Of a DNA stretch of 64,000 nt, positions 4,415 through 53,712 are shown one piece after another. Numbering within the stretch: the stretch's first letter is position 1; every line of letters starts with the position of its first letter. The notes under the pieces were generated by a model. That model had not been told where the DNA came from, made no database searches, and was given only the letters and a program-made list of their open reading frames with translations. The position numbers were made by a program, and so were the translations under genes. Source of the stretch: Candidatus Poseidoniales archaeon (GTDB taxonomy: Archaea > Thermoplasmatota > Poseidoniia > MGIII > CG-Epi1). Where the stretch lies: positions 2,680 through 66,679 of the forward strand of contig JBJLCC010000011.1 of NCBI GenBank assembly GCA_045567855.1, given 5' to 3'.

Positions 4415-4945
4415 ATGGACGCTCTTCAGAAAAGTTTACTTGCAGTAGTTGCAATATCATTGTTCTTTCCTATCGCGCAAGCTGAGGACAAAATATATCG
4501 CGTTGAGGGCCTACCTGAAGATTTACACTATTTTACAGGGAAGTCTTACGAGGTTGTACTTACTGCAAATGATTATGCTTCAATTTCAGAAGTAAACATT
4601 AGTGTGACTAACGGGTCGTTAAGTTTGACAAATGAATTTGAGGCTGATGTATACAATTTAATTTTAGAATCGAGCGATGATGGTTGGACTTTTTTCTGGC
4701 AAGCTCCGGATCAATCTTTTAGTTTAGGAGAAGGTAATTCTTTAATGACTATAATTTTCACAGATACAGACGGTCAAGTATGGTCATCGTACGAGTCTAT
4801 GCTTAGATCGCCGGAAATAGTGTCCCACAGTACCTCAGGAGTTCCTGACTGGGCAAATTTATTAGCATGGTCTGGAGTTAGTGTTACAGTTTTATGCTCG
4901 GTTGCTGGTTCTTACGTTCTCAGAAGAGATAAAATTAAGCAATAA
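4415..4945 (+). CDS. secreted, C-terminally membrane-anchored hypothetical protein
   Basis: Sec-type signal peptide (LLAVVAISLFFPIAQA/ED), a C-terminal hydrophobic helix plus a basic tail (RRDKIKQ), and N-x-S/T sequons. Confidence 0.55.
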   Translation: MDALQKSLLAVVAISLFFPIAQAEDKIYRVEGLPEDLHYFTGKSYEVVLTANDYASISEVNISVTNGSLSLTNEFEADVYNLILESSDDGWTFFWQAPDQSFSLGEGNSLMTIIFTDTDGQVWSSYESMLRSPEIVSHSTSGVPDWANLLAWSGVSVTVLCSVAGSYVLRRDKIKQ

Positions 4946-4960
4946 TTTTTGTAACGTAAG

Positions 4961-4969
4961 GTATATATG
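4961..4969 (+). promoter_or_regulatory. TATA box of pilin gene
   Basis: gtatatatg is preceded by purines (aag). The expected transcription start is near 4990, giving a 5' UTR of about 25 nt that carries a GAGGA Shine-Dalgarno at 5004-5008. Confidence 0.45.
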
Positions 4970-4989
4970 CTCAGCCAACTGTCTATTTG

Positions 4990-5005
4990 TCTGACTTAGG
5001 TCAGA
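4990..5005 (+). promoter_or_regulatory. perfect 6-bp inverted repeat (TCTGAC-TTAG-GTCAGA) in pilin 5' leader, overlapping the SD
   Basis: Read directly from the sequence. The 3' arm overlaps the AGAGGA Shine-Dalgarno region. Confidence 0.35.
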
Positions 5006-5015
5006 GGACACAACA

Positions 5016-5519
5016 ATGCAAAGAAGAATTGTAAAAGATGAGCAGGCAGTATCTCCTGTAATTGCGGTTATTTTGATGGTCGCTATTACAGTGGTTTTGG
5101 CTGCAGTATTGTACGTTTGGGCTAGCAGTTTCCTTGGTGGTACAACCAAGAACGCACCAACCGGCAGTATGATAGCTAGCGAAGATGGAAGCGGTGTCTG
5201 GACGGTTCAGATCGTCAAGATTAACCCACAAGTTTCCGTAAACTCTGTACACTGGTACTTATTAGATGTACAAGGAAACACTAAGACTGATGGCTTAGTT
5301 TCTGATGTCTATGGATATTACTCTGGTCAGGGTAAAGCTGTAGTCTTCATTGACAACGACTTCAACGGCAAGTTGAGCCCAGGTGACAAATTTGAAGTTC
5401 ACCCAGGTGAAGCTGGTTCCGATTTGGAAAGTGTAAATGACGTAAGTGATTACTCCTTCCGTATGAAGTTCGAGCCTACTGGTGATGTAATCGGATACGA
5501 TATAGGTCTACAATCATAG
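5016..5519 (+). CDS. archaeal type IV pilin-like protein (class III signal peptide, Pilin_N/DUF1628 type)
   Basis: N-terminus MQRRIVKDEQAVSPVIAVILMVAITVVLAAVLYVW matches the archaeal pilin N-terminal consensus (..AVSPVIg.iLmvAITVvLAa..). The rest is a soluble beta-rich domain. Confidence 0.8.
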   Translation: MQRRIVKDEQAVSPVIAVILMVAITVVLAAVLYVWASSFLGGTTKNAPTGSMIASEDGSGVWTVQIVKINPQVSVNSVHWYLLDVQGNTKTDGLVSDVYGYYSGQGKAVVFIDNDFNGKLSPGDKFEVHPGEAGSDLESVNDVSDYSFRMKFEPTGDVIGYDIGLQS

Positions 5520-5569
5520 ACTTAGGTCACCAAAATTAGAGTGGAATTCTTTTCACTCGCAGGTAATTC

Positions 5570-5604
5570 GGGGGCTTCGGCCCCCACTTACCAAACTTTT
5601 TTTT
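5570..5604 (+). terminator. GC-rich hairpin with UUCG tetraloop followed by T8 tract
   Basis: GGGGGC-TTCG-GCCCCC (5570-5585) stands out in an AT-rich context, and the T8 run is at 5597-5604. It lies between the convergent pilin and cca genes. Confidence 0.5.
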
Positions 5605-6784
5605 AATCTAACCAAGGCACACGTTGGATTGGTTTTGCACCTTCACATATCCCTTCCCTTACGCTTGCATTTGGTAGAAGAGATTTCACCACGTCTTCGA
5701 TTGTTTGATTTCTTGGTTTTTTACCAATTTCCAATCTCTCATCGTTAAGTATTGCATTTGGATATTTTTTTAGAAATTCAATTGCTCCGTTTTCCCAAGG
5801 AGCTGGGCCTTTGTGTGATACTATTTCGGGTAGTTTTCGCATTCCAGTTTCTATGACAATATAACCGTCATTCCCCATATTTGCATTCCATGCGATTGGT
5901 TCAAAGTCATGAAGCGCCCTATAGATTTTTCTTCCTTGTTTTTGTAACCATGGCATTACGGTTTCTTCATTTTCTCCTGGAAGCGATAAAATAATACTTG
6001 TCAAATTTCCTTGAAATTCTCTTTCTTTATACTTAGGGAAAAAGAAATTATTTGACGGCTCATCAAGAAATGATTTAGAAGCTAAAATAGCAGTTCCTAG
6101 TCCTTTCAAAGTTACTCCTGCAGCTACATTTCTTTTGTCATCGACAGGATCACAAATCATTATTGGAGATTCAGGAGTTTTCATTTTATCAATAATAATA
6201 GGAGGTCTCCACCGGGAAATTTCTTTAATTAGATTTAAGAATCCTCCGTATTTTATGCAAAGTATTTCTACTAAATAACCTGAAAACCCACCTACTGCGG
6301 AATTTGCACCGTAAGCTCCAACGGCCTTTAGGAACTGTTTTGTCAATCTTACTTCATTTTCTAACCCATTTATATTGGATATTACCCAATCAGTATGGAA
6401 TGGCGTTCTATCCACTGCAGATACAGATTCAGTAGAGTCTTCAATTGCAAAACAAGGTACTAGATCAATCCCCACACCATCTATTTCTCCTCTCAAATAG
6501 GGATGCTGTGCGTAGAGTTCCTTACCATTAGGTAGTATTTTCCTTGCTATAGCCAAACCTTCTTTTTTCAAATTAGCTCCCTTTTGAAATATTAAAAAAA
6601 TGTCAATGTCAGTTCCAGCTAGAAAAGTTCTTTTTGCAATTGATCCTACAACTTTAGCTTCAAAAGTTGACATTTCTAAAGCCTTTATTTTCTTAAGAAT
6701 ATTGTCCCTTAAACTTATTATTTTTTCTTTTTCTTCAAGTTTTGGTTGGACTTGCTCTAAGGCCTCAGCTATTATTTCTTTCAC
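5603..6784 (-). CDS. cca: CCA-adding tRNA nucleotidyltransferase (archaeal class I)
   Basis: GSIAKRTFLAGTDIDIFL nucleotidyltransferase motif (G[SG]..[DE]hD) and an archaeal-type domain order. The GTG start overlaps the upstream stop (GTGA). Confidence 0.8.
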   Translation of the reverse strand: MKEIIAEALEQVQPKLEEKEKIISLRDNILKKIKALEMSTFEAKVVGSIAKRTFLAGTDIDIFLIFQKGANLKKEGLAIARKILPNGKELYAQHPYLRGEIDGVGIDLVPCFAIEDSTESVSAVDRTPFHTDWVISNINGLENEVRLTKQFLKAVGAYGANSAVGGFSGYLVEILCIKYGGFLNLIKEISRWRPPIIIDKMKTPESPIMICDPVDDKRNVAAGVTLKGLGTAILASKSFLDEPSNNFFFPKYKEREFQGNLTSIILSLPGENEETVMPWLQKQGRKIYRALHDFEPIAWNANMGNDGYIVIETGMRKLPEIVSHKGPAPWENGAIEFLKKYPNAILNDERLEIGKKPRNQTIEDVVKSLLPNASVREGICEGAKPIQRVPWLD

Positions 6785-7284
6785 TCTTCTTCATCTGCAT
6801 GGTCGACTTTACCTTTACGCCATGCCTTTGTCCTTTCTTTTTCAGCCCTTTTTCTTAATGTTTCAATATCATCTTTAACAGGAAGAAAGATAGGAATAAT
6901 GAATATTATAAGTCCAAGAATTAATGCTAATATTCCCCATAATAAGTATTTTCCAGTTGTTATAGATTCTAAAAATAATGAGATAAGTATAAGAGACAAA
7001 ACAGTGGAAATCCAAATTATTTTTCTGAAAGCCTTTTCTGAAATAATATATTTATCCTTTTCTTCTAAAATTTCAACTGAAAATTCGGCATTTGGAATTT
7101 CAATCTCTTCTTCATTACTAACAGGCCTTTCCAGTTTTAATTTTCTTAAGTATAAATGACCTGCGATTCCAGATATTATGAAGGCAGCTTGCCCATATCC
7201 AGGATCGCCTGCTGCAGTTGCAGCCCAAACGGCATACAACATTGTTAGCCATATTGTAACTATTATTGCATTATACAAGTCCAT
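6781..7284 (-). CDS. hypothetical membrane protein (about 4 TM, charged C-terminal tail)
   Basis: Hydrophobic segments are visible and there are no conserved motifs. It lies between the flavodoxin-ferredoxin gene and cca in the same orientation. Confidence 0.5.
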   Translation of the reverse strand: MDLYNAIIVTIWLTMLYAVWAATAAGDPGYGQAAFIISGIAGHLYLRKLKLERPVSNEEEIEIPNAEFSVEILEEKDKYIISEKAFRKIIWISTVLSLILISLFLESITTGKYLLWGILALILGLIIFIIPIFLPVKDDIETLRKRAEKERTKAWRKGKVDHADEEE

Positions 7285-7297
7285 GATTATTCGAGAT

Positions 7298-8287
7298 TTA
7301 GACTTTACTTTCCATGGTAATTGCTTCTACAGGGCAGGCGAAAGCACAGAGGGTACAACCTACACAAGTATCATCTAAAATCAATGCTTTTTTAGATTCG
7401 AATTGCGAGGTTCTTGCTTTCAAGTCCCAAGATATCATATCAATTGATGCAAAATTACAGTAGTAAACACATTGAGTACAACCTATGCATTTTTCGTTAT
7501 CTACTAAAGCAATGTAGTCTTTACCTTGGGGAAGAGATTTGAGAGTTATTTTTCTCAACTCTTTGAACATATCTTTAGCTTTTTCTATGCCTGTTGTAGG
7601 TAATTCATCGTCGTCAACAGCTTCTTTAACTCTTTTAAGCCATTTATTAGGTTTATGAAAGAAAAGGGATGCAGTTCCCATTGCTTGGTATGCAGAAGTT
7701 CCAGCATTTTCTTCTACAACAGTTTCGACTTCAGTATCTACTACGGCACCGGATGCATAAGAAGTCATACTTTCAACTAAATCAGCTTGGAAGTTTCCTT
7801 CATTATCAACGCTAGCTAATTTTGACATCGTACCATTCATCCATTGTTCAGCCGGTTCTTCAAAATCTACATCACAATCAACTCTATCATGGATTCTAGT
7901 ACCTCCCATATCTTCCATGGTTTTATCCCAATCTATTCCGGACTGACAAAATAAATCGTAACCTGTATCTCCGAGTGCACAAATTGAAAAATGAGTGTTA
8001 GTTAATATTTTACCAACACCAACTGCAGCTTCGTACAGTTCTTCAGCATTGTCAGGCATTTCTCCTTCTCCCCATGTGGAGCATACAATCATCACTCTGG
8101 ACATTCCAGACATTGAATTAATGTCAAAGCCATCCATGTCATGAACTGTAGGATTTAGTCCGTATTTTTTAGCTTCTTTTTGCCATTTTTCAGCTAAGCC
8201 TTCAGAATTTCCACTCTGAGAGCCGTACAATATATGTAAATCTCGATTTCCTTCAGTAGCGAATGCAGTAATATCCACATCAGACAC
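7298..8287 (-). CDS. flavodoxin (FMN) domain fused to 2x[4Fe-4S] ferredoxin domain
   Basis: N-terminal ILYGSQSGNSEGLAEK...CSTWGEGEMPDN resembles the CysJ/CPR-type FMN domain. The C-terminus carries CIGCTQCVYYC and CVGCTLCAFACP cluster motifs. GTG start, TAGTG overlap with the upstream gene. Confidence 0.8.
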   Translation of the reverse strand: MSDVDITAFATEGNRDLHILYGSQSGNSEGLAEKWQKEAKKYGLNPTVHDMDGFDINSMSGMSRVMIVCSTWGEGEMPDNAEELYEAAVGVGKILTNTHFSICALGDTGYDLFCQSGIDWDKTMEDMGGTRIHDRVDCDVDFEEPAEQWMNGTMSKLASVDNEGNFQADLVESMTSYASGAVVDTEVETVVEENAGTSAYQAMGTASLFFHKPNKWLKRVKEAVDDDELPTTGIEKAKDMFKELRKITLKSLPQGKDYIALVDNEKCIGCTQCVYYCNFASIDMISWDLKARTSQFESKKALILDDTCVGCTLCAFACPVEAITMESKV

Positions 8288-9183
8288 TACTTCTTATCCT
8301 CCAAGCATGCAACTAAAAATTGCATTAAGTCCATCATTTCATAATCGTGATGATGGCCCTCTTCAGGATTCATACGTTCCTCATTAAGCATGCATTGCAT
8401 ATGCATGTAACATTTAGGACATCCTCCGAGCATTATGTCTATACCTGCATCTGTACCTTGGTCAAGCCTTTTTCTTCGCACAGCTTTTGTAGCATCATTA
8501 CAATACATCATTGAAGAAACTCCACAACAAAGGGCTCTTTCTTTGTTATTTTCAAGTTCGACCATTGTAGCTCCATCTACTAATTGTATTAAATCACGAG
8601 GAGCCTCATATTCACCCATCATTCTACCGAGGCGGCAGGGGTCGTGGTAAGATACAGTTACATTTTCAGGTGCCTTAAATTTCAAACCTCTTCCTTGTAA
8701 CGTTTGAGTAATGTGTTCAACTTTAATTCCAAGTTTACCAGGTAAATCATAGTCCACAGCAAAGGTACGATAGCATTCAGCACATGAGCATGTTATAATT
8801 TTTACTCCGGATTCTTTTAGTCTTCTCATATTGTGCTCTTTTAGAGCATCAAAGACTTCTAGATTCCCTTGCCATAATTGGTCATGTCCTGAACATTTAA
8901 AGACGTTCATATCTAAAATTAGCGGATCAATATCGGCATAATTTAGCAATTTGATTGAGGCTGCAGCAATTGAGGCGTGATCTGCATCTCCTTTATTCAA
9001 GTGAGTAAATTTGACCTCTACATCCATAAAATCTACACAGCCTGGGAAGTAACCATATTCATGATATCTTTCAGGTTTCCACTCCTGTTTCTCTTCATTC
9101 ATTGCGTCTTCCACAATCAATCTTTCGAAAAGAGGATGTGGAATAGTTCTAGCGTATGGCTTTTGTCTCGTTTCATCTGTCAT
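8287..9183 (-). CDS. CCG (cysteine-rich) domain protein, HdrB/GlcF/SdhE/LutA-like
   Basis: Two cysteine-rich repeats: FPGC...KCSG...CSCAEC and HDPCRLGR...LCCGVSS...GGCPKC. No signal peptide or TM helix. Confidence 0.75.
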   Translation of the reverse strand: MTDETRQKPYARTIPHPLFERLIVEDAMNEEKQEWKPERYHEYGYFPGCVDFMDVEVKFTHLNKGDADHASIAAASIKLLNYADIDPLILDMNVFKCSGHDQLWQGNLEVFDALKEHNMRRLKESGVKIITCSCAECYRTFAVDYDLPGKLGIKVEHITQTLQGRGLKFKAPENVTVSYHDPCRLGRMMGEYEAPRDLIQLVDGATMVELENNKERALCCGVSSMMYCNDATKAVRRKRLDQGTDAGIDIMLGGCPKCYMHMQCMLNEERMNPEEGHHHDYEMMDLMQFLVACLEDKK

Positions 9184-10309
9184 ATGCTACACCTCCTATT
9201 GGAGAGCTACCACTGCCTGGTAAATCTAGAGTATTTCCCTCTGCAGTTGCTCCAAGTGTAGCTAAAAGTCTTTGTTCTAGTACATAATCAACATATTCAA
9301 TGTTCTGTGGGCAAACTGCAGTACACATACCACAAGAAATGCATGACCAAAGAGCAACTCCATCGTGTTTATTTTGGAAAGTATTAAAAATAATATTTAA
9401 TTCATGTTCTCCTTCCATATCTCTTACGGGACAAATATCATCACAAAGTCCACATTGATAGCACCGGTTTAATTTGAATTCATAAATGCGTTGCATTCGC
9501 CGGTCTTGAATACCATTTGTGTAAAGATCGAACCTTTCTTCATCACTTAGCGGTTTGGCACCTTCAGATCTTCTTCTATCAAGGAATAGATAAGTTATCA
9601 AAGCGCAAGCGATAGGGCCCCACAAAGTAAGCGCATAGAGTAAGTCGGTGGTAACTTCAGGATAGTACAGTGCTATGTTTGCATTAATTGAAAAAACAGA
9701 CAGCATAATTACCATTGCTATACCATAAACGCCGATTGCAGCTCTAACTGGATCTTCTATGGGTCTTCGTTCATGCCCTCTATTGATTACGTCTCCATAT
9801 TGAGGGTCAATAACTGCACCCAATGCTCTGTCGATAAATGGAACTGCAACAACTAGTCCAACAATAAGTCCTTGAACTAAAGTACCCCAAACTTTTGCAC
9901 TCATTAAAAATAGCTCTATATCATCTAAGCCTAAGAAAGGAATCATAGAAAGAGGTAGCCCTATTTTCAAATCAGTAGCAACTTTTAGACATCCAAAAGC
10001 CCACAACAAATACCAATCAGGTAGTGGAGGTGGATAGGCAGTACCAGCAGTAGGATCAGCAGACTCGTGTAATGGAGGTGGAATGAATGCTCCCAAATAA
10101 AACATAATTGAAAGGACATAGAATGTGTAAACAGTATCTCTTGATAATTCGTGAGGATAAAGAGGCTCACCTTTTACGAGGCTCGCTTCTAGAACAGAGT
10201 GTTCTTCACGATTATCTAGTTTTCTTATTGTATCAAGTTCTTGTTGTTCCTGTATAGACTCGCCTATCATTTCTGTAGCATCATCTTCTAGTATATTTTC
10301 TTGGCTCAT
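9173..10309 (-). CDS. cytochrome b C-terminal domain/subunit IV-like membrane protein fused to C-terminal 2x[4Fe-4S] (HdrC-like) domain
   Basis: PEWY-like motif LPDWYLLWAFG follows the first TM helix, with several more TM helices, then DRRRSEG and CYQCGLCDDICPV plus CISCGMCTAVCPQN. TAATG overlap with the cytochrome b gene. Confidence 0.75.
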   Translation of the reverse strand: MSQENILEDDATEMIGESIQEQQELDTIRKLDNREEHSVLEASLVKGEPLYPHELSRDTVYTFYVLSIMFYLGAFIPPPLHESADPTAGTAYPPPLPDWYLLWAFGCLKVATDLKIGLPLSMIPFLGLDDIELFLMSAKVWGTLVQGLIVGLVVAVPFIDRALGAVIDPQYGDVINRGHERRPIEDPVRAAIGVYGIAMVIMLSVFSINANIALYYPEVTTDLLYALTLWGPIACALITYLFLDRRRSEGAKPLSDEERFDLYTNGIQDRRMQRIYEFKLNRCYQCGLCDDICPVRDMEGEHELNIIFNTFQNKHDGVALWSCISCGMCTAVCPQNIEYVDYVLEQRLLATLGATAEGNTLDLPGSGSSPIGGVAYDR

Positions 10310-11286
10310 TAGTGAGGTTCAGCCTCCCCTTGGATCCATACTAATGCCATATGAATTATCATAAGAACTGTACCTACTAAAGGAAGCACAAAAATATGAA
10401 GCCAGTACATTCTTGTTACAGTATCTGCAGTAACTTGCGTTCCTCCAAATACGATTTGAGCCATCAATGGCCCCATTGCAGGTATAGAAGTGGCCATTTC
10501 AAGGCCAATTGCAGCAGCCGCATATCCGAGTGCATCCCATGGCAATAGATATCCAGTGTAACCAAAGAAAATAGTTACAAGTAATAGTATGACTCCTAGG
10601 ATCCAGTTAACTTCTCTTGGATTCCTATAAGCACCTACAAAGTAAACTCTCATCATGTGTAAAAATACTGCTGCAACCATGAAGTGTGCAGCCCAATGAT
10701 GTATAGCTCGCATTATGTATCCAAAAGCTACTTTTGTCATTATGAGTTCCATAGATTGATACGATCCCGATGTGGCATGACCGTCCTCATCAAAAGTTAT
10801 TTCACCATCTGGTACATAGTAGAATCCAAGATAAATTCCGGTTATAACTAAGATAATGTATGCAAAAAATGAAAGTCCTCCTAAGGAATAGAATGGATAC
10901 CAATACCAAACAGATTTCACATTGTATCTTTCAGTATGAGACTGCGGCATTGTCCTCCCACTTGAAGGTAGAAGTGTGAAAACAACTGAATAATATTCTC
11001 GTTTGGCAAGAGAAGTATATCTGTGTAATGCAAATCTTTCATCAAACCAGTTCCACGTTGCCAATAAGACTCGTGGAAGAGTTCCAGAAACGTACAAATA
11101 TCCTACAGTCAATACAGCCATTAACAGTTGAAGGAAAATCAATGGGAAAGTATACTTTCTCATTAGTTCTTCAATTATAGGGGCGTCACCTGCTGCACTT
11201 ACAGGCAGTGCAAAGAAAGTAATACTTCCTAATAGTGAAGCAAAAAGTAGTTTTATTTTCATCCTTGTCCGCAATATTTGAGCCAT
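10309..11286 (-). CDS. cytochrome b (N-terminal, di-haem domain) with extra N-terminal TM helices
   Basis: IHHWAAHFMVAAVFLH (H-x13-H) and HIFVLPLVGTVLMIIH (H-x14-H), plus YRNPREVNWILGV...GYTGYLLPWD. The alternative start at 11262 (MKIK...) forms an ATGA overlap with the Rieske stop and may be the true start. Confidence 0.85.
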   Translation of the reverse strand: MAQILRTRMKIKLLFASLLGSITFFALPVSAAGDAPIIEELMRKYTFPLIFLQLLMAVLTVGYLYVSGTLPRVLLATWNWFDERFALHRYTSLAKREYYSVVFTLLPSSGRTMPQSHTERYNVKSVWYWYPFYSLGGLSFFAYIILVITGIYLGFYYVPDGEITFDEDGHATSGSYQSMELIMTKVAFGYIMRAIHHWAAHFMVAAVFLHMMRVYFVGAYRNPREVNWILGVILLLVTIFFGYTGYLLPWDALGYAAAAIGLEMATSIPAMGPLMAQIVFGGTQVTADTVTRMYWLHIFVLPLVGTVLMIIHMALVWIQGEAEPH

Positions 11287-11945
11287 TCAATTTGAGTCAT
11301 TAGCCCAACTAAACCTCCATCTTTTTCTTCTATAGGTACCACAGGAAGACCATAAGGGGCAGGCCCTTCTAATAATTCTGCAGCCATAACTTCACGGCCT
11401 TGTTCGTCAACATTTTTAATAACAGATAGTGGATCGAACAATGATAAATGGCATGGACATAAGAACATATTTTCATAGTCATTTCCACTGATAGTACTTG
11501 TTCCTTCAGCGCTAAATACAGGTTTACAGCATAAATGAGGACATTTGTATGTATGGTATGCCATGAGATATGCATTACCATCATCTACACTCACTCCCAG
11601 TCCGTTCATTGATGGTTCAGCAGGAACTTTGGCTAAAGCTAATTGTATTTCACATGCTCCTAATTCTTGTTCTAAATCTTTTGGAGCCCAATTGACAATT
11701 GCTACATCCCAAAGATTAAAATCCTCTTTTTTAGCGACACTTCCACCCATGTTTTCATACCATTTCCCGCTTTCAGATTTATAAGTTAAGGTCTCGTGGG
11801 CATCATCATCATTACATCTAGTAACTGGCGGTGGGAGTAATGTTTTAAGTGCAGGAACTGCAAGAGCTGTAGTCATTCCAGCTCCAGCCAATCCTATAGC
11901 GCCTTGTAAGAATCCTCTTCGTGTTATATTCATATCATCTTTCAA
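11259..11945 (-). CDS. Rieske [2Fe-2S] protein with twin-arginine signal
   Basis: Tat motif TRRGFLQGAIGLAGAG and the cluster boxes CPHLCC and CPCHLSLFD. Confidence 0.85.
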   Translation of the reverse strand: MKDDMNITRRGFLQGAIGLAGAGMTTALAVPALKTLLPPPVTRCNDDDAHETLTYKSESGKWYENMGGSVAKKEDFNLWDVAIVNWAPKDLEQELGACEIQLALAKVPAEPSMNGLGVSVDDGNAYLMAYHTYKCPHLCCKPVFSAEGTSTISGNDYENMFLCPCHLSLFDPLSVIKNVDEQGREVMAAELLEGPAPYGLPVVPIEEKDGGLVGLMTQIEWLKYCGQG

Positions 11946-12228
11946 GTTTTGTTATAACCTTACTCCTCCTCTTTTTTAGTTCCAAAACATCAGGCAAAAA
12001 TGATCTTCTGTAGAAATCAATCATTAACCCCATTATCAGAAATGCCATAGCAATTGTAAACGAAAGAAATTGTTGATCCCATCCCTCTAATATTCCATAT
12101 ATGAATAGGGAGTCATACATTATTTCCAATACTAATAAAACAAGGACAATTGCAAAAATTTCACCTTGTTCTTTACCTGGAGTCTCACGTACAACTTTTC
12201 CTAGGTCCTCGTCTTTATAAGTTCCCAA
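11935..12228 (-). CDS. small 2-TM membrane protein (start uncertain; TTG)
   Basis: Two hydrophobic helices. The only canonical start is TTG at 12228, but the frame stays open and protein-like for 30 codons upstream. Confidence 0.5.
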   Translation of the reverse strand: MGTYKDEDLGKVVRETPGKEQGEIFAIVLVLLVLEIMYDSLFIYGILEGWDQQFLSFTIAMAFLIMGLMIDFYRRSFLPDVLELKKRRSKVITKLER

Positions 12229-12286
12229 TAATTTCTGTGCATCTTCAGGAGTTATTTCCCCTTTTGCAATTTTCTCAAGTAATTCG

Positions 12287-12982
12287 TTAACCTCGGTAAT
12301 GGGAACTACCTCCTCTAATTACAACATATGCCAACAATATCATCACAAATACCACAGCTATCGCGAGTAATGCTATCCAGTACTGCATTAAACTTACGCC
12401 CAGTTCATGTATAGATGCTTCCTCTGATTTTACCTGAGGAGTTCCAATAGATACGGCTGTAATATATCCCCATTGATCTCCACCAGTTCCAGCCCCATTA
12501 ACGACATTATAATAAATTGTGAATAAAGAATCACCGCTACCATCGCTCGGAGCAGTCCATTGGAAAGTCCAGTTTCGTTGACCATTACTGTCAGCATTAT
12601 GTGAAATATATTTTCCTTCCCCACCTATCCAATAAAGTGCATCAGTCTGAAAAGCTCCTTCACTTACTTCAGCTAAAAAACCACCATACCGAATGGCTTC
12701 AGGTTCGGAGATTACGCTAGTATCGTTTATTACAAGTGAAATATTGTAGGCAGTATCTGGTTCATATTTAGATGGAATTCCTTCTAGCATGTACATACCT
12801 TGATCAAGTTGTTCGTCCATGTGGCAGGAGCAGCCATTAGCAATGCTATCTTCAGCCCAATCCTCACCGGCCCCTTGCTGAGCACCTCCTGCAGGGTAAC
12901 CATCGACGCTCATACCGACAGATATGACTGTAATCAATAAAATTGCTAATAGTGCGTAGGTTTCTTTTTGATTCGTAGCCAA
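12287..12982 (-). CDS. extracytoplasmic, C-terminally membrane-anchored protein of unknown function (first gene of Rieske/cyt b array)
   Basis: N-terminal signal/anchor, a beta-rich domain with a CSCH motif, and a C-terminal TM helix (WIALLAIAVVFVMILLAYVVI). TTG start preceded by a GGGGAG Shine-Dalgarno-like element. Confidence 0.6.
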   Translation of the reverse strand: MATNQKETYALLAILLITVISVGMSVDGYPAGGAQQGAGEDWAEDSIANGCSCHMDEQLDQGMYMLEGIPSKYEPDTAYNISLVINDTSVISEPEAIRYGGFLAEVSEGAFQTDALYWIGGEGKYISHNADSNGQRNWTFQWTAPSDGSGDSLFTIYYNVVNGAGTGGDQWGYITAVSIGTPQVKSEEASIHELGVSLMQYWIALLAIAVVFVMILLAYVVIRGGSSHYRG

Positions 12983-13021
12983 ATTTAGCTCCCCTTAAGG
13001 TGGGATATTATCGAAGTGAGC

Positions 13022-13033
13022 GCTATATAAAAA
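13022..13033 (-). promoter_or_regulatory. TATA box for the minus-strand Rieske/cyt b array
   Basis: On the minus strand this reads TTTTTATATAGC, about 45 nt upstream of the TTG start at 12982. That leaves room for a short leader carrying the SD. Confidence 0.4.
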
Positions 13034-13090
13034 TATAGTAATATTTTAGGCACTTTTTTACTTGAGTGAACAGCTTTGTTTTAATGAGGC

Positions 13091-13099
13091 TATAATATT
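13091..13099 (+). promoter_or_regulatory. TATA-like box for the 13124 gene (leaderless geometry)
   Basis: tataatatt is centred about 29 nt upstream of the ATG at 13124. Confidence 0.35.
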
Positions 13100-13123
13100 A
13101 TTAAACAACCGTTTTGATAGTCT

Positions 13124-14710
13124 ATGAAAGACGTCAGATTAAGTAAGCTAATGGGCTTAGTTTTGTTAGGTCTTTTAACACTGTTATTTCGCTTTCCAGT
13201 TACAGATTCACCTACCGATTCAGATAATTTTTTTTATGCTACAACTGTAAAATCAGTATTAAGTGATGGTCAAATCTTTTGGGCCGAGCATATTTTTTCA
13301 TTCTATGGTTTGTATCCAGGGACTACTCCATTAGGAGGCACGATATTAGCAACATCAATAGTACAAATAACAGGCATATCTATTCATCATTATCAATTAT
13401 TTCATAGTATCTTCCTATCGTTAATTTCTACTTTTGGTTTTTTTTTATTATCGGGTGAGCTAACTTCAAATTATAAGAGTCGTTGGATTTCATCTTTAGC
13501 ATTTTTAGTTGTGCCTAAGTTTGTATTCCTTAATATTTGGAGATTTTCTTTACGTTTTTTGCTTATTGCATTTCTTACTTTTTTCTTTTGGGCAATTCTC
13601 AGATTTATGAATGAACAATACAATCGCAGTTCTAGAAAAATGTTGTTATTGTTAGTGGTGTTTACAATAACTCTTCCATCATTACATAGAATGGGGTTAT
13701 TATTTCCTGGATTTTTATTATCCTTTCTTTTAGCTTTTTTGTTTTGGAATTGGCAGGAAAAAGCGTTGAATCGAGAGCGCGCAGGAAGGCAAATCTTCTT
13801 TGTATTAACGCTCTTAGCTTCTTACTTTTTTTACCTCAGTTATCTTGATTTTTCACCTTATTCGCCAGATAAAAAATTATTTGCAGTTTACTATTTAAAT
13901 GAGGGTGGTTTTTTTTCGACTATAATTAATTTAGGTTTTTACTATCTAATAAATACAGGCCCTATCATATCATTATCTTTGGTGGGTTTTATATTTTGGA
14001 TTCAAGAGGGCAGAGTCCCCTTTGGCTACATGTTTTTTATGTCCTCAATTTCTCTAGCTACCATATTAATTTTAGATTTGATTTACATTTCTTACTTGGT
14101 TACATTTATGATAATAGTATTTGTAATTCCAGGTATGGATTTTTTCATTGATAATCTCAAAGATTATAGAATACGTTTTCGAGTTTTTTTTGTGTCTATA
14201 CTAATACTTACAGTCTCGTTTTCCAGTATGAATTTATTCTATAGATTAGACGAGAAAGAGAATGAGAATTATAGTTATACCTACAATGTTAGTGAGGCTA
14301 GCATATCTACAGGTTTGTGGTTAGGTGAAAATTTTTATTCTGAAATTATAGAATCGAATGATAGGAATAGGGAGAGACGAGTCGTAGCTTACAGCGATTC
14401 AGTAAGTCAATCAGACTTAACTGAATTATCTTCAGGTAAAATTATTTTATCAGATATGGAGATTTCGCGAATATCAGTTGTCGATTTTTACTGGGAAAGT
14501 GAGGATCATCTCTGGAAATGGAATAATGCAGCAAATCAATCGGCCTTAGAGTCCAATGTATCGATTGTAAATCTTGCAATGTCTAATTTTACCGGCCAGG
14601 CATCTACTAATACTTTAATTGTAAGTAACTATTACAAAAGTATGCCGTATTATAATTTTAATGTGTATCGTAATGAAGAGCTTGCAGTTTATTGGACAAA
14701 TAATTATTGA
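13124..14710 (+). CDS. large polytopic membrane protein, possible GT-C-type glycosyltransferase
   Basis: More than 10 predicted TM helices followed by a soluble domain of about 170 aa that contains sequons. No AglB WWDYG motif was seen, so the function is uncertain. Confidence 0.5.
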   Translation: MKDVRLSKLMGLVLLGLLTLLFRFPVTDSPTDSDNFFYATTVKSVLSDGQIFWAEHIFSFYGLYPGTTPLGGTILATSIVQITGISIHHYQLFHSIFLSLISTFGFFLLSGELTSNYKSRWISSLAFLVVPKFVFLNIWRFSLRFLLIAFLTFFFWAILRFMNEQYNRSSRKMLLLLVVFTITLPSLHRMGLLFPGFLLSFLLAFLFWNWQEKALNRERAGRQIFFVLTLLASYFFYLSYLDFSPYSPDKKLFAVYYLNEGGFFSTIINLGFYYLINTGPIISLSLVGFIFWIQEGRVPFGYMFFMSSISLATILILDLIYISYLVTFMIIVFVIPGMDFFIDNLKDYRIRFRVFFVSILILTVSFSSMNLFYRLDEKENENYSYTYNVSEASISTGLWLGENFYSEIIESNDRNRERRVVAYSDSVSQSDLTELSSGKIILSDMEISRISVVDFYWESEDHLWKWNNAANQSALESNVSIVNLAMSNFTGQASTNTLIVSNYYKSMPYYNFNVYRNEELAVYWTNNY

Positions 14711-14774
14711 AATATGCTAATGTTTTTATACAGGCCCGACTGGCGCAGTGTCCTTATTAGGAGTTAAAAAGAAA

Positions 14775-15227
14775 ATGGCACGAATGCATGCAAGACGTAA
14801 AGGTCGCTCAGGTTCTAGTCCACAGACTAGGAAAGAAAACCCTAAATGGTCACCAAAGGCCAAAGACGTAGAAAAGCTAATCCTTGAATTATATTCAGAA
14901 GGTAAATCGTCATCCGAAATAGGAATCATTTTAAGAGATATGCATGGAGTTCCTAGCGTAAAATTAGCAACAGGTAAATCAATAACTTCAGTCTTGTTAG
15001 ACGGAGGTTCTTCTTCTTCACTTCCAGAAGATTTAACAAATCTTATGAGAAAAGCAGTTCGTTTAGGCGAGCATTTAAAATTAAATAAGAAAGATATTCA
15101 CAATACACGTTCTTTGAGGTTAACAGAAGCTAAAATACTTCGTTTAGTGAAATACTATCGATCGACTAAGGTGTTGTCTGATGACTGGAAATATTCATTG
15201 AATGAAGCTAAGCTTTTAGTAGGATAG
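14775..15227 (+). CDS. rps15: 30S ribosomal protein uS15 (S15P/S13e)
   Basis: MARMHARRKGRSGSSPQTRKENPKWS is the archaeal/eukaryotic S15P/S13e N-terminus. The ATG at 14775 is preferred over the ORF-track start at 14748. Confidence 0.85.
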   Translation: MARMHARRKGRSGSSPQTRKENPKWSPKAKDVEKLILELYSEGKSSSEIGIILRDMHGVPSVKLATGKSITSVLLDGGSSSSLPEDLTNLMRKAVRLGEHLKLNKKDIHNTRSLRLTEAKILRLVKYYRSTKVLSDDWKYSLNEAKLLVG

Positions 15228-16013: not shown

Positions 16014-16940
16014 TTGATGTCATCTATAGAGGAAGTAATTATCATAGGTTCAGGTCCAGCAGGCTATACTGCAGGCTTGTATACTGGAAGAGCAATGCTT
16101 AAACCTAAATTGTTCGCAGGTTTTGCAAGTGGTGGGCAACTAATGCTGACTAGCGATGTAGAAAATTTCCCAGGATATCCTGAAGGTATAAGTGGCCCTG
16201 AAATGATGATGGAATTGAGAGCTCAAGCAGCAAGATTTGGTTGCGATATTGTTGATAAAAATGTAGATTCGATTGATACTAGCTCTCATCCGTTTAAAGT
16301 CAATGTAGGTAAAGAACAATTTTTAACAGAATCAATAATTATTACAACAGGTGCAGAGGCAATATGGCTAGATGCAGCTAATGAAGAGAAGCACAAAGGA
16401 CAAGGAATATCTACCTGTGCCACATGTGACGGTGCATTTTTCAGAAATAAAGAAGTTATAGTAGTTGGAGGCGGAGACTCAGCCATGGAGGAAGCTACTT
16501 TCCTTACTAGATTTTGCAGTAAAGTCACCATTGTTAACAGAAGAGAAGAACTAAGAGCTTCACAAATTATGGCAGATAGAGCCCGAGATAATGATAAGAT
16601 CGAATGGAAATTAAATCGAGTTGTAAAGGAGTGGGTAGGTGAGCAAGGAAATTTCGAAGGAGTTATTCTTGTAGACACTATATCAGGTGAAGAAGAATTA
16701 CTCAAATGTGACGGAGCATTCATAGCTATAGGACACAAGCCTATGACAAATTTCCTAGGAGATCAGATTGAGTTGGATGATCATGGCTACATAGTTCCTA
16801 AAGAAAATACTATGACAAATGTTTCTGGAGTATTCGCAGCAGGGGACGTAGTTGATACGAGGTATCGCCAGGCAATTACTGCAGCAGGTATGGGATGTAT
16901 GGCAGCTATTGATGCTGAAAAATGGTTAGAAGAGAATTAG
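16014..16940 (+). CDS. trxB: thioredoxin-disulfide reductase
   Basis: IIIGSGPAGYTAG FAD motif, redox-active CATCDG, VVGGGDSAMEEA NADPH motif, and FAAGDV. Confidence 0.9.
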   Translation: MMSSIEEVIIIGSGPAGYTAGLYTGRAMLKPKLFAGFASGGQLMLTSDVENFPGYPEGISGPEMMMELRAQAARFGCDIVDKNVDSIDTSSHPFKVNVGKEQFLTESIIITTGAEAIWLDAANEEKHKGQGISTCATCDGAFFRNKEVIVVGGGDSAMEEATFLTRFCSKVTIVNRREELRASQIMADRARDNDKIEWKLNRVVKEWVGEQGNFEGVILVDTISGEEELLKCDGAFIAIGHKPMTNFLGDQIELDDHGYIVPKENTMTNVSGVFAAGDVVDTRYRQAITAAGMGCMAAIDAEKWLEEN

Positions 16941-49626: not shown

Positions 49627-50745
49627 ATGGTAGAAATTTACATTATATTGAGTTTGGTGATTGGAATAGGAGTAGGCTACGCAATTGCGAATAAAAGTAA
49701 TAATTCGAACGATGATGACATAGATTCTATAAAAAAAGAAATGGAAAATACATTCAAAGCTTTAGCTTTAGATGTTAATAAATCAAATACTGAAGAATTT
49801 TTTAAGTTGGCAAATGATAAATTTCAAGGGTTAAGTAAAGAATCAGATACCAATTTAGAGAGTAAGAAAAAACTAATTGATGAAAATTTAAATGAAATGT
49901 CTAAAAGATTGAAGTCTATAGAAGATGCCTCCATCAAGCTTAATGAAAATTTAGAATCTACTAATACTCAAACCAAAGATTTGACAAAGACAACAATCAA
50001 ATTACGTGAGATATTGTCTTCATCACAAAAGCGAGGGCAATGGGGAGAGAGAATTGTTGAAGATATCCTTAACGTTATTGGGCTTATGGAAGGTGTAAAT
50101 TATACCAAGCAAGGAGTTGTCGAATCAGGCGAACGTCCTGATTTCACATTTAAACTACCTAAAGAAAAAATAATTAACATGGATGTAAAATTTCCTTTAG
50201 CCCATTACGAGAGATATATTGATTCGGAAGATGAACAAATTCGTAATTCTGAAAAAAGTGCATTTATAAGAGACGTAAAGAAACATGTTAAAGATATAAC
50301 AAAACGTAGCTATATTGACCCTTCATCAGGGACTTTAGATTACGTACTAATGTTGGTTCCAAATGAATCAATTTATTCATTTATTAATAAGGAAGATAGC
50401 GCAGTTATCGATTTTGCTTTAGAAAATAAAGTTCTTCTTTGTTCACCCCTTACTCTTTATGCAATTCTTTCCCTGATTCATCAAGCAACAAGAAATTTTG
50501 CGATGGAGGAAAAAGCTACAGAAGTAATGAGTTTACTCAATACTTTCCGTCTTCAGTGGTCAAAATATGTAGAGGCTATGGATAAAATGGGAAGAAGAAT
50601 AGACGATGCAAAGAAAGAATTTAATAGCTTAGTTAGCACACGTACTAATCAATTACAGAAACCCCTCAACAAAATAGATGACATAACTAATTTAGTTGAC
50701 GACACAGAGCAAGTCACTAAACTAGAAGGTCAGCAGAAGTTTTAA
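49627..50745 (+). CDS. rmuC: DNA recombination protein RmuC
   Basis: N-terminal TM helix, a coiled coil, then RPDFTFKLPKEKIINMDVKFPL...MLVPNESIY, which matches the RmuC nuclease-like core. Confidence 0.8.
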   Translation: MVEIYIILSLVIGIGVGYAIANKSNNSNDDDIDSIKKEMENTFKALALDVNKSNTEEFFKLANDKFQGLSKESDTNLESKKKLIDENLNEMSKRLKSIEDASIKLNENLESTNTQTKDLTKTTIKLREILSSSQKRGQWGERIVEDILNVIGLMEGVNYTKQGVVESGERPDFTFKLPKEKIINMDVKFPLAHYERYIDSEDEQIRNSEKSAFIRDVKKHVKDITKRSYIDPSSGTLDYVLMLVPNESIYSFINKEDSAVIDFALENKVLLCSPLTLYAILSLIHQATRNFAMEEKATEVMSLLNTFRLQWSKYVEAMDKMGRRIDDAKKEFNSLVSTRTNQLQKPLNKIDDITNLVDDTEQVTKLEGQQKF

Positions 50746-52154: not shown

Positions 52155-52462
52155 TACTTGCCCCCTCTTTTACCAGCAATCATGTTCAACATTCGGTTAG
52201 TAACAGCAAATCCTCCAACTACGTTAATTGTAGCTAAAATTAGTGCAAAAAATGCCAACCATGCTGCAACTCCAGGATCGCCCCCGTTGAAGTCAGTATT
52301 TGAAAAAATCAAAGCTCCAACAATTGTAATTCCAGAAATTGCATTAGCTCCTGACATTAGCGGAGTATGGAGTGTAGCAGGTACTTTTGTAATTAGTTCG
52401 AATCCTAGAAAAATAGCCAATATGAAAACCGTGATTGCACCTATAAGTGTGACTAATTCCAT
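52154..52462 (-). CDS. pntA: NAD(P) transhydrogenase subunit alpha part 2 (membrane)
   Basis: 102-aa protein with 3 TM helices, lying between the alpha-1 and beta genes with 1-nt overlaps. Confidence 0.85.
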   Translation of the reverse strand: MELVTLIGAITVFILAIFLGFELITKVPATLHTPLMSGANAISGITIVGALIFSNTDFNGGDPGVAAWLAFFALILATINVVGGFAVTNRMLNMIAGKRGGK

Positions 52463-53634: not shown

Positions 53635-53712
53635 AATTTAGCACCGATAATTTGTGTGTTGACTAAATAGTCTGTAATGTATCCTACAAACATACTGATA
53701 AAACTTTTCCTA

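Follow-up and report, generated by a model that had tools for sequence, protein, structure and literature searches.

A Marine Group III operon for a b6f-type Rieske/cytochrome b complex with a predicted cytoplasmic iron-sulfur, CCG and flavodoxin module

The stretch of DNA analysed here (the window) covers 64,000 nucleotides of contig JBJLCC010000011.1 (GenBank assembly GCA_045567855.1, Candidatus Poseidoniales archaeon; forward-strand positions 2,680 to 66,679). Eight abutting or overlapping minus-strand genes within window positions 6781-12982, here called G1 to G8, make up an operon that encodes a b6f-type, split-cytochrome-b Rieske/cytochrome b complex of a Marine Group III (MGIII) archaeon. 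To the Rieske protein (G3) and the two parts of cytochrome b (G4 and G5), the operon adds iron-sulfur, CCG and flavin mononucleotide (FMN) domains (the C-terminal tail of G5, G6 and G7) that are predicted to form a cytoplasmic module. Judged from natural fusions and conserved gene order, the products of G1 to G8 appear to be parts of one noncanonical Rieske/cytochrome b complex rather than neighbouring enzymes. In the reading that we favour, to which we give about an even chance, the main task of the module would be to bring low-potential electrons from the cytoplasm to the side of the complex where quinone is reduced.

An earlier note, made from the DNA alone, had drawn attention to seven of these genes and had proposed that they specify a single noncanonical Rieske/cytochrome b complex with an Fe-S, CCG and FMN module, a proposal that the fusions and synteny described below bear out. 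All seven open reading frames (ORFs) are present on the minus strand at the positions given in that note, and its domain calls were upheld by profile searches with Pfam and NCBIfam. The junctions that it listed are likewise seen in the sequence (TAATG between G4 and G5, TAGTG between G6 and G7, and 11-nt overlaps between G5 and G6 and between G2 and G3), except that the ATGA junction of G3 and G4 holds only if G4 starts at Met9. We add an eighth gene, G8, which lies 13 nt downstream of G7.

G5 is 96% identical to a protein of Marine Group III euryarchaeote CG-Epi1, and its close homologues are named as proteins of marine group II or III. A scan of one genome per species, as listed in GTDB, yielded 78 loci, which belong either to MGIII or to Thermoplasmata of soil, sediment and groundwater, and all their ORFs were searched with the window proteins. 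The gene order (first gene, DUF7318, Rieske, N-terminal part of cytochrome b, C-terminal part of cytochrome b fused to Fer4, CCG, ferredoxin-like) was kept in 78 of 78 loci wherever the contig reached, and the array is not a chance one because it recurs in 78 species-level loci. As the earlier note had asked, the CCG and ferredoxin-like genes adjoin the cytochrome b genes in every relative examined. Since the loci were chosen by the G5 fusion, the scan shows that these genes always travel with a G5-type fusion, which is not to say that they travel with every cytochrome b gene.

A library-wide search with G5 returned only 12 clusters below 1e-30, several of which are single chains with Cytochrom_B_C, Fer4 and two CCG domains. 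Three fusion boundaries were found in all: in MGIII and the soil Thermoplasmata, the C-terminal part of cytochrome b is joined to Fer4 and the CCG protein is separate; in a locus related to Poseidoniaceae of Marine Group II (MGII), L089, the C-terminal part of cytochrome b is separate and a transmembrane (TM) segment, Fer4 and CCG form the second protein; and elsewhere all three parts are joined in single chains. The L089 cytochrome b part, which clusters at 90% with a Poseidoniaceae (MGII) protein, is without a Fer4 domain. The next gene encodes a 635-residue protein with one TM helix, Fer4 and two CCG domains, and genes resembling G7 and G8 lie just downstream on the opposite strand. In this Fer4-CCG protein (L089 7881-9788), the single TM helix is preceded by 230 N-terminal residues of unknown fold, which would have to lie outside the cell if the Fe-S part is cytoplasmic.

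Two further loci widen the range of arrangements. In L087 (GCA_964347835.1, an archaeal contig, 4729-14876), genes for a multihaem cytochrome c, a DUF7318-like protein, a Rieske protein, the N-terminal part of cytochrome b and a cytochrome b-Fer4-CCG fusion stand in series and are followed by HdrC, HdrB, a 1010-residue HdrA, MvhD and another multihaem cytochrome c, so that this locus apparently specifies a Rieske/cytochrome b complex coupled to a bifurcating Hdr module. In L088 (4425-8329, from a metagenome-assembled genome [MAG] labelled Halobacteria), a cytochrome c, DUF7318, a predicted Rieske protein (called by position and length; Pfam found no family), the N-terminal part of cytochrome b and a cytochrome b-Fer4 fusion occur with no CCG or ferredoxin-like gene in the cluster. 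The Fer4 tail can thus exist without the CCG module. Taken together, the occurrence of three fusion boundaries for the same parts is strong evidence that they would form one physical complex, and the single chains that combine the C-terminal part of cytochrome b with Fer4 and CCG argue that they are not neighbouring enzymes.

The membrane core is recognizably that of cytochrome b6f. G4 matched Pfam Cytochrome_B at 4e-38, and its nearest relatives in the PDB are cytochrome b6 chains (1e-40). The four haem histidines that had been pointed out in the earlier note (H196 and H210, H-x13-H; H297 and H312, H-x14-H) align with H86, H100, H187 and H202 of b6, as expected for two bis-His haems on helices B and D, and an N-terminal extension provides two extra hydrophobic segments. 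Cys35 of b6, the haem-ci ligand, aligns to Ser134 of G4 (FYSLGG, residues 132-137; window 10885-10887), so that the CxGG motif is absent from the window protein. In a MAFFT alignment, this cysteine is retained by 35 loci from soil and by 8 from deep-branching MGIII, and the MGII locus has it as well; serine occupies the position only in the larger MGIII group to which the window belongs. Thus, the family is b6f-like by ancestry and the haem-ci site was lost in the window clade. The serine in that clade implies that haem ci disappeared recently, in the course of MGIII evolution. The position of b6 Arg207 and bc1 His201 is tryptophan throughout the family.

G5 matched the C-terminal half of QcrB weakly (5.6e-8), and its PDB matches were HdrC, FwdF, NuoI and QcrB. 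The PDWY motif noted earlier was found at G5 residues 97-100 and in 81 of 82 homologues; this Qo motif is associated with menaquinol (Kao and Hunte 2014, PMC4122944). Four helices, E to H, were assigned, with helix E falling below the hydropathy threshold and being placed by homology. A GEPxxPxE motif is common to G5 and subunit IV, and E54 of G5 is invariant; by our own alignment, we take E54 to be the equivalent of D35 of subunit IV and D229 of bc1. Regarding the residues of the Q cycle, then, what residue conservation gives is an invariant E54 and a tryptophan at the b6 R207 position. The invariance of E54 and the CxGG cysteine of many orthologues suggest that a quinone-reduction side has been retained. 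All the sequence features expected of the Rieske/cytochrome b superfamily were found in the operon except a c-type cytochrome. The earlier report that the window lacks CxxCH was borne out for every ORF of at least 100 residues, and on this count there is no c1, f or di-haem c subunit among them. The 30 window ORFs that were scanned include none that we recognized as a terminal oxidase.

On the outer face, G3 has the features of a Tat-exported Rieske protein that had been read from its sequence. Support from hidden Markov models was weak (TAT signal TIGR01409, 8e-5, with the motif TRRGFL; Rieske_proteo, 1.6e-8), and the cluster boxes, disulfide cysteines and export signal were all present: C135-P-H137-L-C-C140 and C163-P-C165-H166 align to the bc1 iron-sulfur proteins 7yr9 and 8smr (PDB, 1e-4), and the Rieske motifs are kept in 71 of 74 loci. 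The small two-TM protein of the earlier description, G2, belongs to Pfam DUF7318 (1.4e-13). All related loci have a gene of this kind, L087, L088 and L089 among them, and a literature search for DUF7318 found nothing.

The first gene had been described as an extracytoplasmic membrane-anchored protein, to which a fold can now be added, namely, a Reeler-type beta sandwich. G1 matched the NCBIfam choice-of-anchor V family (choice_anch_V, 2e-18); the core of its AF2 model had a pLDDT of about 80 and was closest in Foldseek to the F-spondin reeler domain (1.5e-6), and a UniRef homologue is named 'Reelin domain-containing'. Its invariant residues are G50-C51-x-C53-H54, H128 and H192. We rejected a cupredoxin assignment for G1, given that the fold search led to the Reeler domain and the spacing of type-1 copper ligands is absent. 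The C-terminal anchor of G1 (YWIG..IGI...SY..I(K/R)) is common to the cupredoxin-like first gene of soil loci (62 of 65 ORFs), and in the form YW(I/L)G..G...Y..(I/V)(K/R) it is recognizable in the L088 cytochrome c, the L087 multihaem c and the MGII protein. The head in front of this anchor differs by lineage: it is Reeler-like with GCxCH in MGIII and MGII, cupredoxin-like in soil Thermoplasmata, a monohaem cytochrome c in L088 and a multihaem cytochrome c in L087. Because the anchor is homologous and the heads differ, as expected of the Rieske protein's electron acceptor, the first gene probably encodes a head-swapped subunit on a common anchor that stands in place of cytochrome c1 or f. The Reeler-fold protein, in which GCxCH is invariant, may have taken over from those cytochromes as a redox head of a new kind.

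The remaining domains constitute the putative cytoplasmic wire. The tail of G5 is a Fer4_8 dicluster domain (3.8e-10) with invariant cysteines C283/286/289/293 and C323/326/329/333, and that of G7 is a Fer4_21 dicluster domain (3e-14); both have complete pairs of CxxCxxCxxxCP motifs. The Fe-S domain of G5 is fused after helix H and a basic stretch, DRRRSEGAK, and in G6 and G7 a hydropathy scan gave no TM segment and we saw no signal peptide. Since the domain follows four helices and the basic stretch, and since G6 and G7 are without a TM segment, the whole module is predicted to be cytoplasmic; the topology check asked for in the earlier note, by helix count and basic stretch, places the G5 domain on the cytoplasmic and not the outer side.

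G6 matched Pfam CCG (3e-18) in two stretches, as in the two-repeat protein of the earlier description, save that its first motif reads CSG and not CCG. The second and proximal repeat, CCG2, is canonical (C183, C219-C220, C255 and C258) and invariant among orthologues, and the first, CCG1, is a variant with C49, C97-S98 and C132-x-C134-A-E-C137. Two forms of CCG1 exist. In soil lineages and one MGIII clade, it reads KCCGHD with CAEG and has four cysteines; in the window and most of MGIII, it reads KC(S/T)GHD with TCSCAEC. The covariation of these ligands is perfect over about 70 loci, which suggests that the two sets are alternatives for one distal cluster that has been retained. Such variability of the distal ligands would be atypical of catalytic heterodisulfide reductases. 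The top PDB match of G6 was EtfD of Mycobacterium smegmatis (9ojn, 2e-15), followed by HdrB (8e-6). Its nearest relatives outside the family, at 45-48% identity, are HdrD-like proteins of anaerobic methanotrophic (ANME) archaea and Methanoperedens, which have the canonical CCG1 ligand set (ANME proteins) and sit in soluble HdrD-HdrC-HdrB-HdrA-MvhD clusters without cytochrome b. An AlphaFold model of a natural cytochrome b-Fer4-CCG fusion, P0258, built from a 10-sequence alignment, had a pLDDT of 57 and was confident only in the CCG part, for which the top Foldseek match was EtfD (6.6e-12) with LutA second, a comparison that gives a ranking only and no geometry.

The flavodoxin-2x[4Fe-4S] fusion of the earlier note is G7, as matches to Flavodoxin_1 (9e-27; 94.4 bits against a cutoff of 25) and Fer4_21 confirm. 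The N-terminal domain is a CysJ/MioC-type FMN flavodoxin (top NCBIfam match CysJ, 5.7e-38) with the FMN phosphate loop GSQSGNSE at residues 22-29. Assignment of G7 as RnfB was rejected (TIGR01944, 1.6e-10; 40.9 bits against a cutoff of 68.7), there being no membrane anchor and no rnf partners. The linker and the C-terminal dicluster domain of G7 are conserved. The N-terminal domain is a flavodoxin in the window clade (11 complete loci), whereas other MGIII clades have a ferredoxin domain there and soil relatives lack the domain altogether; in MGII, the counterpart of G7 is a free gene for a 110-residue ferredoxin. The flavodoxin is a clade-specific replacement of a ferredoxin domain and not a core part of the complex. 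Both forms of G7 occur among MGIII genomes, as judged from the names of MAGs and single-amplified genomes, and genomes labelled CG-Epi1 include one of each; we claim no link between the flavodoxin form and the surface ocean.

Comparison with known systems places the complex between families. Like cytochrome b6f and the Firmicute b6c complex, it is split at the b6/subunit IV boundary, has the GEPxxPxE and P(D/E)WY motifs and the four aligned histidines and, in many orthologues, has the CxGG cysteine of haem ci. The window complex differs in that it is without cytochrome f or c1, has an eighth helix to which a 2x[4Fe-4S] domain is fused, counts CCG and ferredoxin/flavodoxin proteins among its subunits, reads PDWY at the Qo motif and has serine for the haem-ci cysteine. 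The haloarchaeal halocyanin-type cluster (Baymann et al. 2012, PMC3509893) likewise has a split cytochrome b whose C-terminal part includes an eighth helix; its outer partner is a non-haem protein, cytochrome c is missing and small hypothetical genes flank the cluster, whereas Fe-S, CCG and flavodoxin parts are unmentioned in the text of that paper. A precedent exists in two sentences by Diamond et al. (2022, PMC9038741), who described hdrD-like and rnfB-like genes beside cytochrome b in Ca. Angelarchaeales, with a plastocyanin-like gene upstream of the Rieske gene and with A-type ATPase and complex I genes near. Our loci L004 and L048-L086 match this description and are orthologous gene for gene to the window cluster, from which they differ in that the window has a Reeler-like rather than a cupredoxin head, a flavodoxin in G7, no haem-ci cysteine and a rearranged CCG1. 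The Fer4 fusion to cytochrome b, the CCG variation, haem ci and the anchor swap go unmentioned in PMC9038741.

Among enzymes with CCG domains, EtfD of M. smegmatis (9ojn) and EMO of Syntrophus resemble the window module in having two CCG domains, two cubanes and a membrane haem b, a variable distal cluster site and a first motif with one cysteine (CTG in EtfD, CSG in the window). Their partner, however, is a five-helix mono- to tri-haem domain on the same polypeptide instead of a Rieske/cytochrome b6-type core, His583 of EtfD is glutamate in the window, and the donor of EtfD is the electron-transfer flavoprotein (ETF) rather than a dedicated ferredoxin/flavodoxin subunit. HdrDE and DsrMK also place cytoplasmic Fer4 and two CCG domains on a haem b membrane protein, but there the partner is of the NarI type, both CCG domains are canonical and catalytic, and the substrate is CoM-S-S-CoB or DsrC; in the window, Fer4 (G5) and CCG (G6) are on separate chains, CCG1 is noncanonical and the partner is of the b6/subunit IV type. 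Against the NCBIfam models for HdrD, HdrB, DsrK and TfrB, G6 scored best with TfrB (88 bits against a cutoff of 385), with the others far below. Judged by the defining features of those families, the complex would not be a member of the HdrD, RnfB or EtfD family, although its cytoplasmic module appears to be built like that of EtfD and EMO. Finally, the Rieske/cytochrome b complexes of anammox bacteria (PMC12954380) and the 'PDWF-FeS' fusions (PMC4122944) also have cores joined to cytoplasmic Fe-S or flavin modules. For these, a low-potential branch to cytoplasmic acceptors is proposed and not demonstrated, and the added domains are MvhD, ferredoxin-flavin reductase and FAD/NAD(P)-binding subunits, none with CCG. 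Their cytochrome b clades and Qo motifs differ from those of the window, and the likeness of the added parts is not one of demonstrated homology.

The mechanism that we favour would run as follows. A menaquinol-type quinol would be oxidized at the PDWY Qo site on the outer face, one electron passing to the Rieske cluster and from there to the head-swapped, C-terminally anchored subunit, which in the window is the Reeler-like G1. On the cytoplasmic side, donors at the level of ferredoxin or flavodoxin, with electrons that come, for example, from 2-oxoacid:ferredoxin oxidoreductases, would feed a chain that leads from FMN and the 2x[4Fe-4S] domain of G7 over the two CCG clusters of G6 to the 2x[4Fe-4S] tail of G5, haem bH of G4 and the quinone-reduction pocket, where these electrons would join the Q cycle. 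G7 would be a dedicated, tethered ferredoxin/flavodoxin, and the CCG clusters would serve as a wire and not as a disulfide-reducing site. We infer both this order and this direction of flow. Input is favoured because the module shares its parts with EtfD and EMO, with EtfD the best match, because its distal cluster is variable and because it ends in a dedicated ferredoxin/flavodoxin. In EtfD, electrons pass from the CCG clusters over the cubanes and haem b to menaquinone and so into the quinone pool (PMC13083937); in EMO, the noncubane clusters are electron transfer sites, the distal one variable (10.64898/2026.08.18.745454). According to these recent structures, both enzymes start from a cytoplasmic flavoprotein, and their distal CCG cluster is noncatalytic. 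Delivery of electrons by ferredoxin to haem cn is also a long-standing proposal for cytochrome b6f. Entry of ferredoxin electrons was proposed independently for the sister lineage by Diamond et al. (2022, PMC9038741), and we count on the same side that the L087 fusion precedes HdrC-HdrB-HdrA-MvhD, itself a cytoplasmic redox module. Several points weigh against this direction. Sequence cannot give the direction of electron flow, and all centres of the chain could work either way; the window clade is without the haem-ci cysteine and has tryptophan at the b6 Arg207/bc1 His201 position, so that its quinone-reduction pocket may be altered; its CCG1 has five cysteines, which would allow a second noncubane cluster and thiol chemistry; and the nearest sequence relatives of G6, at the 45-48% level, are annotated as HdrD-like and sit in Hdr clusters. 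An uncoupled path from ferredoxin to quinone would waste about 350 mV that a Nuo-type complex could conserve, the sole multidomain model is poor, and the docking site of G7 may be either CCG1 or the cubanes.

The earlier note had proposed the opposite direction: after bifurcation at the Qo site, the low-potential electron would cross over haems bL and bH and leave through the cubanes and the CCG clusters. In the cytoplasm it would reduce a disulfide, a soluble carrier or the flavodoxin/ferredoxin domain, instead of or beside quinone reduction at Qi, and low-potential reductant would thereby be drawn from quinol with the high-potential branch paying for it. The cytoplasmic Fe-S, CCG and FMN module on which this model was built does exist, and the loss of the haem-ci cysteine and the tryptophan at the His201/Arg207 position are compatible with a changed Qi site; the model is the more plausible in the window clade, which has lost haem ci. 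There are parallels as well: anammox Rieske/cytochrome b complexes with extra cytoplasmic redox subunits are proposed to make NAD(P)H (PMC12954380), and bacterial cytochromes b are fused to 4Fe-4S/MvhD or ferredoxin/flavin reductase domains (PMC4122944). By our own estimate, oxidation of menaquinol with a Rieske acceptor near +150 to +250 mV would leave the second electron at roughly -250 mV inside. The hydroquinone potentials of ferredoxin and flavodoxin (about -400 mV), however, look unreachable against the membrane potential; both MGII (PMC6336850) and the soil lineage (PMC9038741) live as aerobic heterotrophs, and the catabolism of such hosts should yield reduced ferredoxin rather than need it; the acidic Qi residue is invariant and the haem-ci cysteine ancestral in the family; and the closest solved analogue, EtfD, runs in the input direction. 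Drainage instead of Qi reduction is disfavoured because E54 is invariant, many orthologues keep the haem-ci cysteine and EtfD feeds the quinone pool. Overall, we regard outward flow as unlikely and favour input over it. Less probable again is that G6 is a catalytic subunit of the HdrD/DsrK type that would connect a thiol/disulfide couple (a protein trisulfide or disulfide, or a low-molecular-weight disulfide) with the quinone pool by way of haem bH, whichever way the electrons flow, with G7 as an extra electron branch. The identity of 45-48% to ANME and Methanoperedens HdrD-like proteins, matches to the TfrB, LdhH, DsrK and HdrB models (all below cutoff), the canonical CCG2 together with the five cysteines of the window CCG1, and the position of the L087 fusion directly upstream of HdrC, HdrB, HdrA and MvhD would fit such a role. 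Yet catalytic Hdr uses both noncubane clusters (10.64898/2026.08.18.745454), and CCG1 is down to four cysteines in every orthologue from soil and in one clade of MGIII and is rearranged in the rest. No gene for a DsrC/TusE-like protein or lipoate carrier appeared in the conserved clusters, and a separate canonical HdrB accompanies the HdrD-like protein in L087 and the ANME clusters, where the latter need not be catalytic. Synthesis of coenzyme M or coenzyme B is not known from the host archaea, which also counts against a catalytic G6.

A further possibility, which we rate slightly lower than a catalytic G6, is that the module is the equivalent of EtfD/EMO in function, with ETF, reduced by acyl-CoA and amino-acid dehydrogenases, docking on the CCG protein and its electrons reaching the quinone pool through cytochrome b, and with G7 as an accessory. 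EtfD comes first among solved proteins in both sequence and fold comparisons, a gene for an acyl-CoA dehydrogenase lies in the window (53713-54882), and MGII archaea are described as degraders of protein and fatty acids (PMC6336850); against this, there are no etfAB genes in or beside any cluster examined, and the dedicated ferredoxin-like subunit that always accompanies the module suggests ferredoxin-type rather than ETF-type docking. The reading that two unrelated enzymes simply lie side by side, one of them an ordinary Rieske/cytochrome b complex and the other a soluble, GlcF/LutA-type Fe-S oxidoreductase, could appeal to the many soluble dehydrogenases with CCG proteins and to LutA as the second-best fold match, but it is close to refuted by the covalent fusion of Fer4 to the C-terminal cytochrome b subunit, by the natural three-way fusions, by synteny across classes with shifting fusion boundaries and by the overlap of the genes.

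The coordinates of the operon and of related features are collected in Table 1. For G2, the true start is most likely ATT 12300, overlapping the stop codon of G1, rather than the listed TTG. A conserved N-terminal peptide, ITEVNELLEKIAKGEITPEDAQKLL, is encoded upstream of the listed start (region 12229-12300) and is kept in L001 and L012, with a similar N terminus in the L088 protein, and ATT 12300 is the only in-frame table-11 start upstream of the listed one; L001 has GTG at this position. At the other end of the operon, G8 is a possible eighth subunit of the complex. It is kept after G7 in all MGIII loci that are long enough, and a weak relative adjoins the MGII cluster. Its stop codon overlaps the start (GTGA) of a gene for a CCA-adding tRNA nucleotidyltransferase on the same strand (window 5603-7284), an adjacency that is found in L001 too.

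Table 1. Coordinates of operon genes G1 to G8 in the window and of related features in other loci
Feature	Coordinates	Strand	Description
G1	12287..12982	-	outer-face Reeler-fold protein; N-terminal hydrophobic segment, C-terminal TM anchor; first gene of the window cluster
G2	11935..12300	-	DUF7318 two-TM subunit; listed ORF start TTG 12228
G3	11259..11945	-	Tat-exported Rieske [2Fe-2S] protein; cluster boxes 11448-11543
G4	10309..11286	-	cytochrome b6-like di-haem subunit; probable start Met9 at 11262
G5	9173..10309	-	subunit-IV-like C-terminal part of cytochrome b plus 2x[4Fe-4S] domain at 9299-9472
G6	8287..9183	-	two-CCG protein; CCG1 8773-9039, CCG2 8410-8637
G7	7298..8287	-	flavodoxin domain 7841-8233, linker, RnfB-like 2x[4Fe-4S] domain 7313-7510
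G8	6781..7284	-	small membrane protein, about 3 TM; no Pfam family
First gene of L004	4195-4827
First gene of L088	4425-4934
First gene of L087	4729-5454
First gene of L089	3995-4807
Loci with haem-ci Cys			L035-L041, L046, L048-L086, L089

Several genes outside the operon were recorded. Divergent from it lies a gene for a 528-residue multipass membrane protein (window 13124-14710) of no Pfam family, which is syntenic in L001 (531 residues). A thioredoxin-reductase-like gene (16014-16940), separated from the operon and divergently placed, is syntenic in MGIII and was not found in the listed part of soil locus L004. In L004, a gene for a GlcD-like FAD oxidase (FAD_binding_4 and FAD-oxidase_C; 11264-12784) follows the cluster at a distance of ~2 kb, is read from the other strand and adjoins TatA/TatC and molybdopterin oxidoreductase genes. 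Farther away in the window, at 50742-54882, genes for PntB (50742-52154), a PntA-like protein (52462-53634) and the acyl-CoA dehydrogenase are grouped; the last implies ETF-dependent electron input somewhere in the organism.

Parts of this picture had been glimpsed before. The earlier note, writing of HdrDE and DsrMK, had paired Fe-S plus CCG modules with NarI-type cytochromes and not with Rieske/cytochrome b modules; taken as a general rule, this had been overtaken by PMC9038741. Its statement that no characterized complex has this composition stands to the extent that we found no biochemical description, although the pairing itself was anticipated in PMC9038741 and in PMC4122944, where Kao and Hunte (2014) described bacterial cytochrome b fused to 4Fe-4S, MvhD and flavin domains. 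Our literature searches combining Rieske, cytochrome b, HdrD-like or Marine Group III returned no dedicated study, and they found no structural or biochemical work on the complex nor anything specific to MGIII. Tully et al. (2019, PMC6336850) reported that MGII, which is globally abundant in the ocean, has cytochrome b and Rieske proteins with no canonical bc1, a complex III that they called "MGII specific," and a lone "RnfB" with the other Rnf genes lacking. The combination of parts is conserved and widespread, glimpsed before and never analysed. Not reported in the literature searched are the Fer4-cytochrome b fusion, the shifting fusion boundaries, what appears to be EtfD-like CCG variability, the swap of ferredoxin for flavodoxin, the loss of haem ci and the head-swapped Reeler-like subunit.

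Should the complex be a quinol-driven bifurcating machine, sending one electron to the oxidase chain and the other through the wire to the tethered flavodoxin/ferredoxin or a disulfide, which we doubt, an aerobic archaeon would make low-potential reductant from its quinone pool, and a Rieske/cytochrome b complex would for the first time have been shown to send the low-potential electron out rather than recycle it. It would then also be the clearest candidate for quinone-based bifurcation to cytoplasmic acceptors, so far proposed for anammox only. An encoded wire on a b6-type core, coinherited with the haem-ci motif in many members, also opens to experiment the old question of whether electrons at the level of ferredoxin can enter such a complex from its cytoplasmic or stromal side, as in the proposed ferredoxin:plastoquinone route of cyclic electron flow. 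The family also offers natural experiments in the swap of the outer head (cupredoxin, cytochrome c, multihaem c or Reeler-like), the swap of ferredoxin and flavodoxin on the inside and the covariation of the distal CCG ligands. The design is present in soil and sediment Thermoplasmata besides the ocean, and the complex is a candidate for the MGII-specific complex III; as a candidate for the MGII enzyme, this design probably carries a large share of the aerobic respiration of marine archaea.

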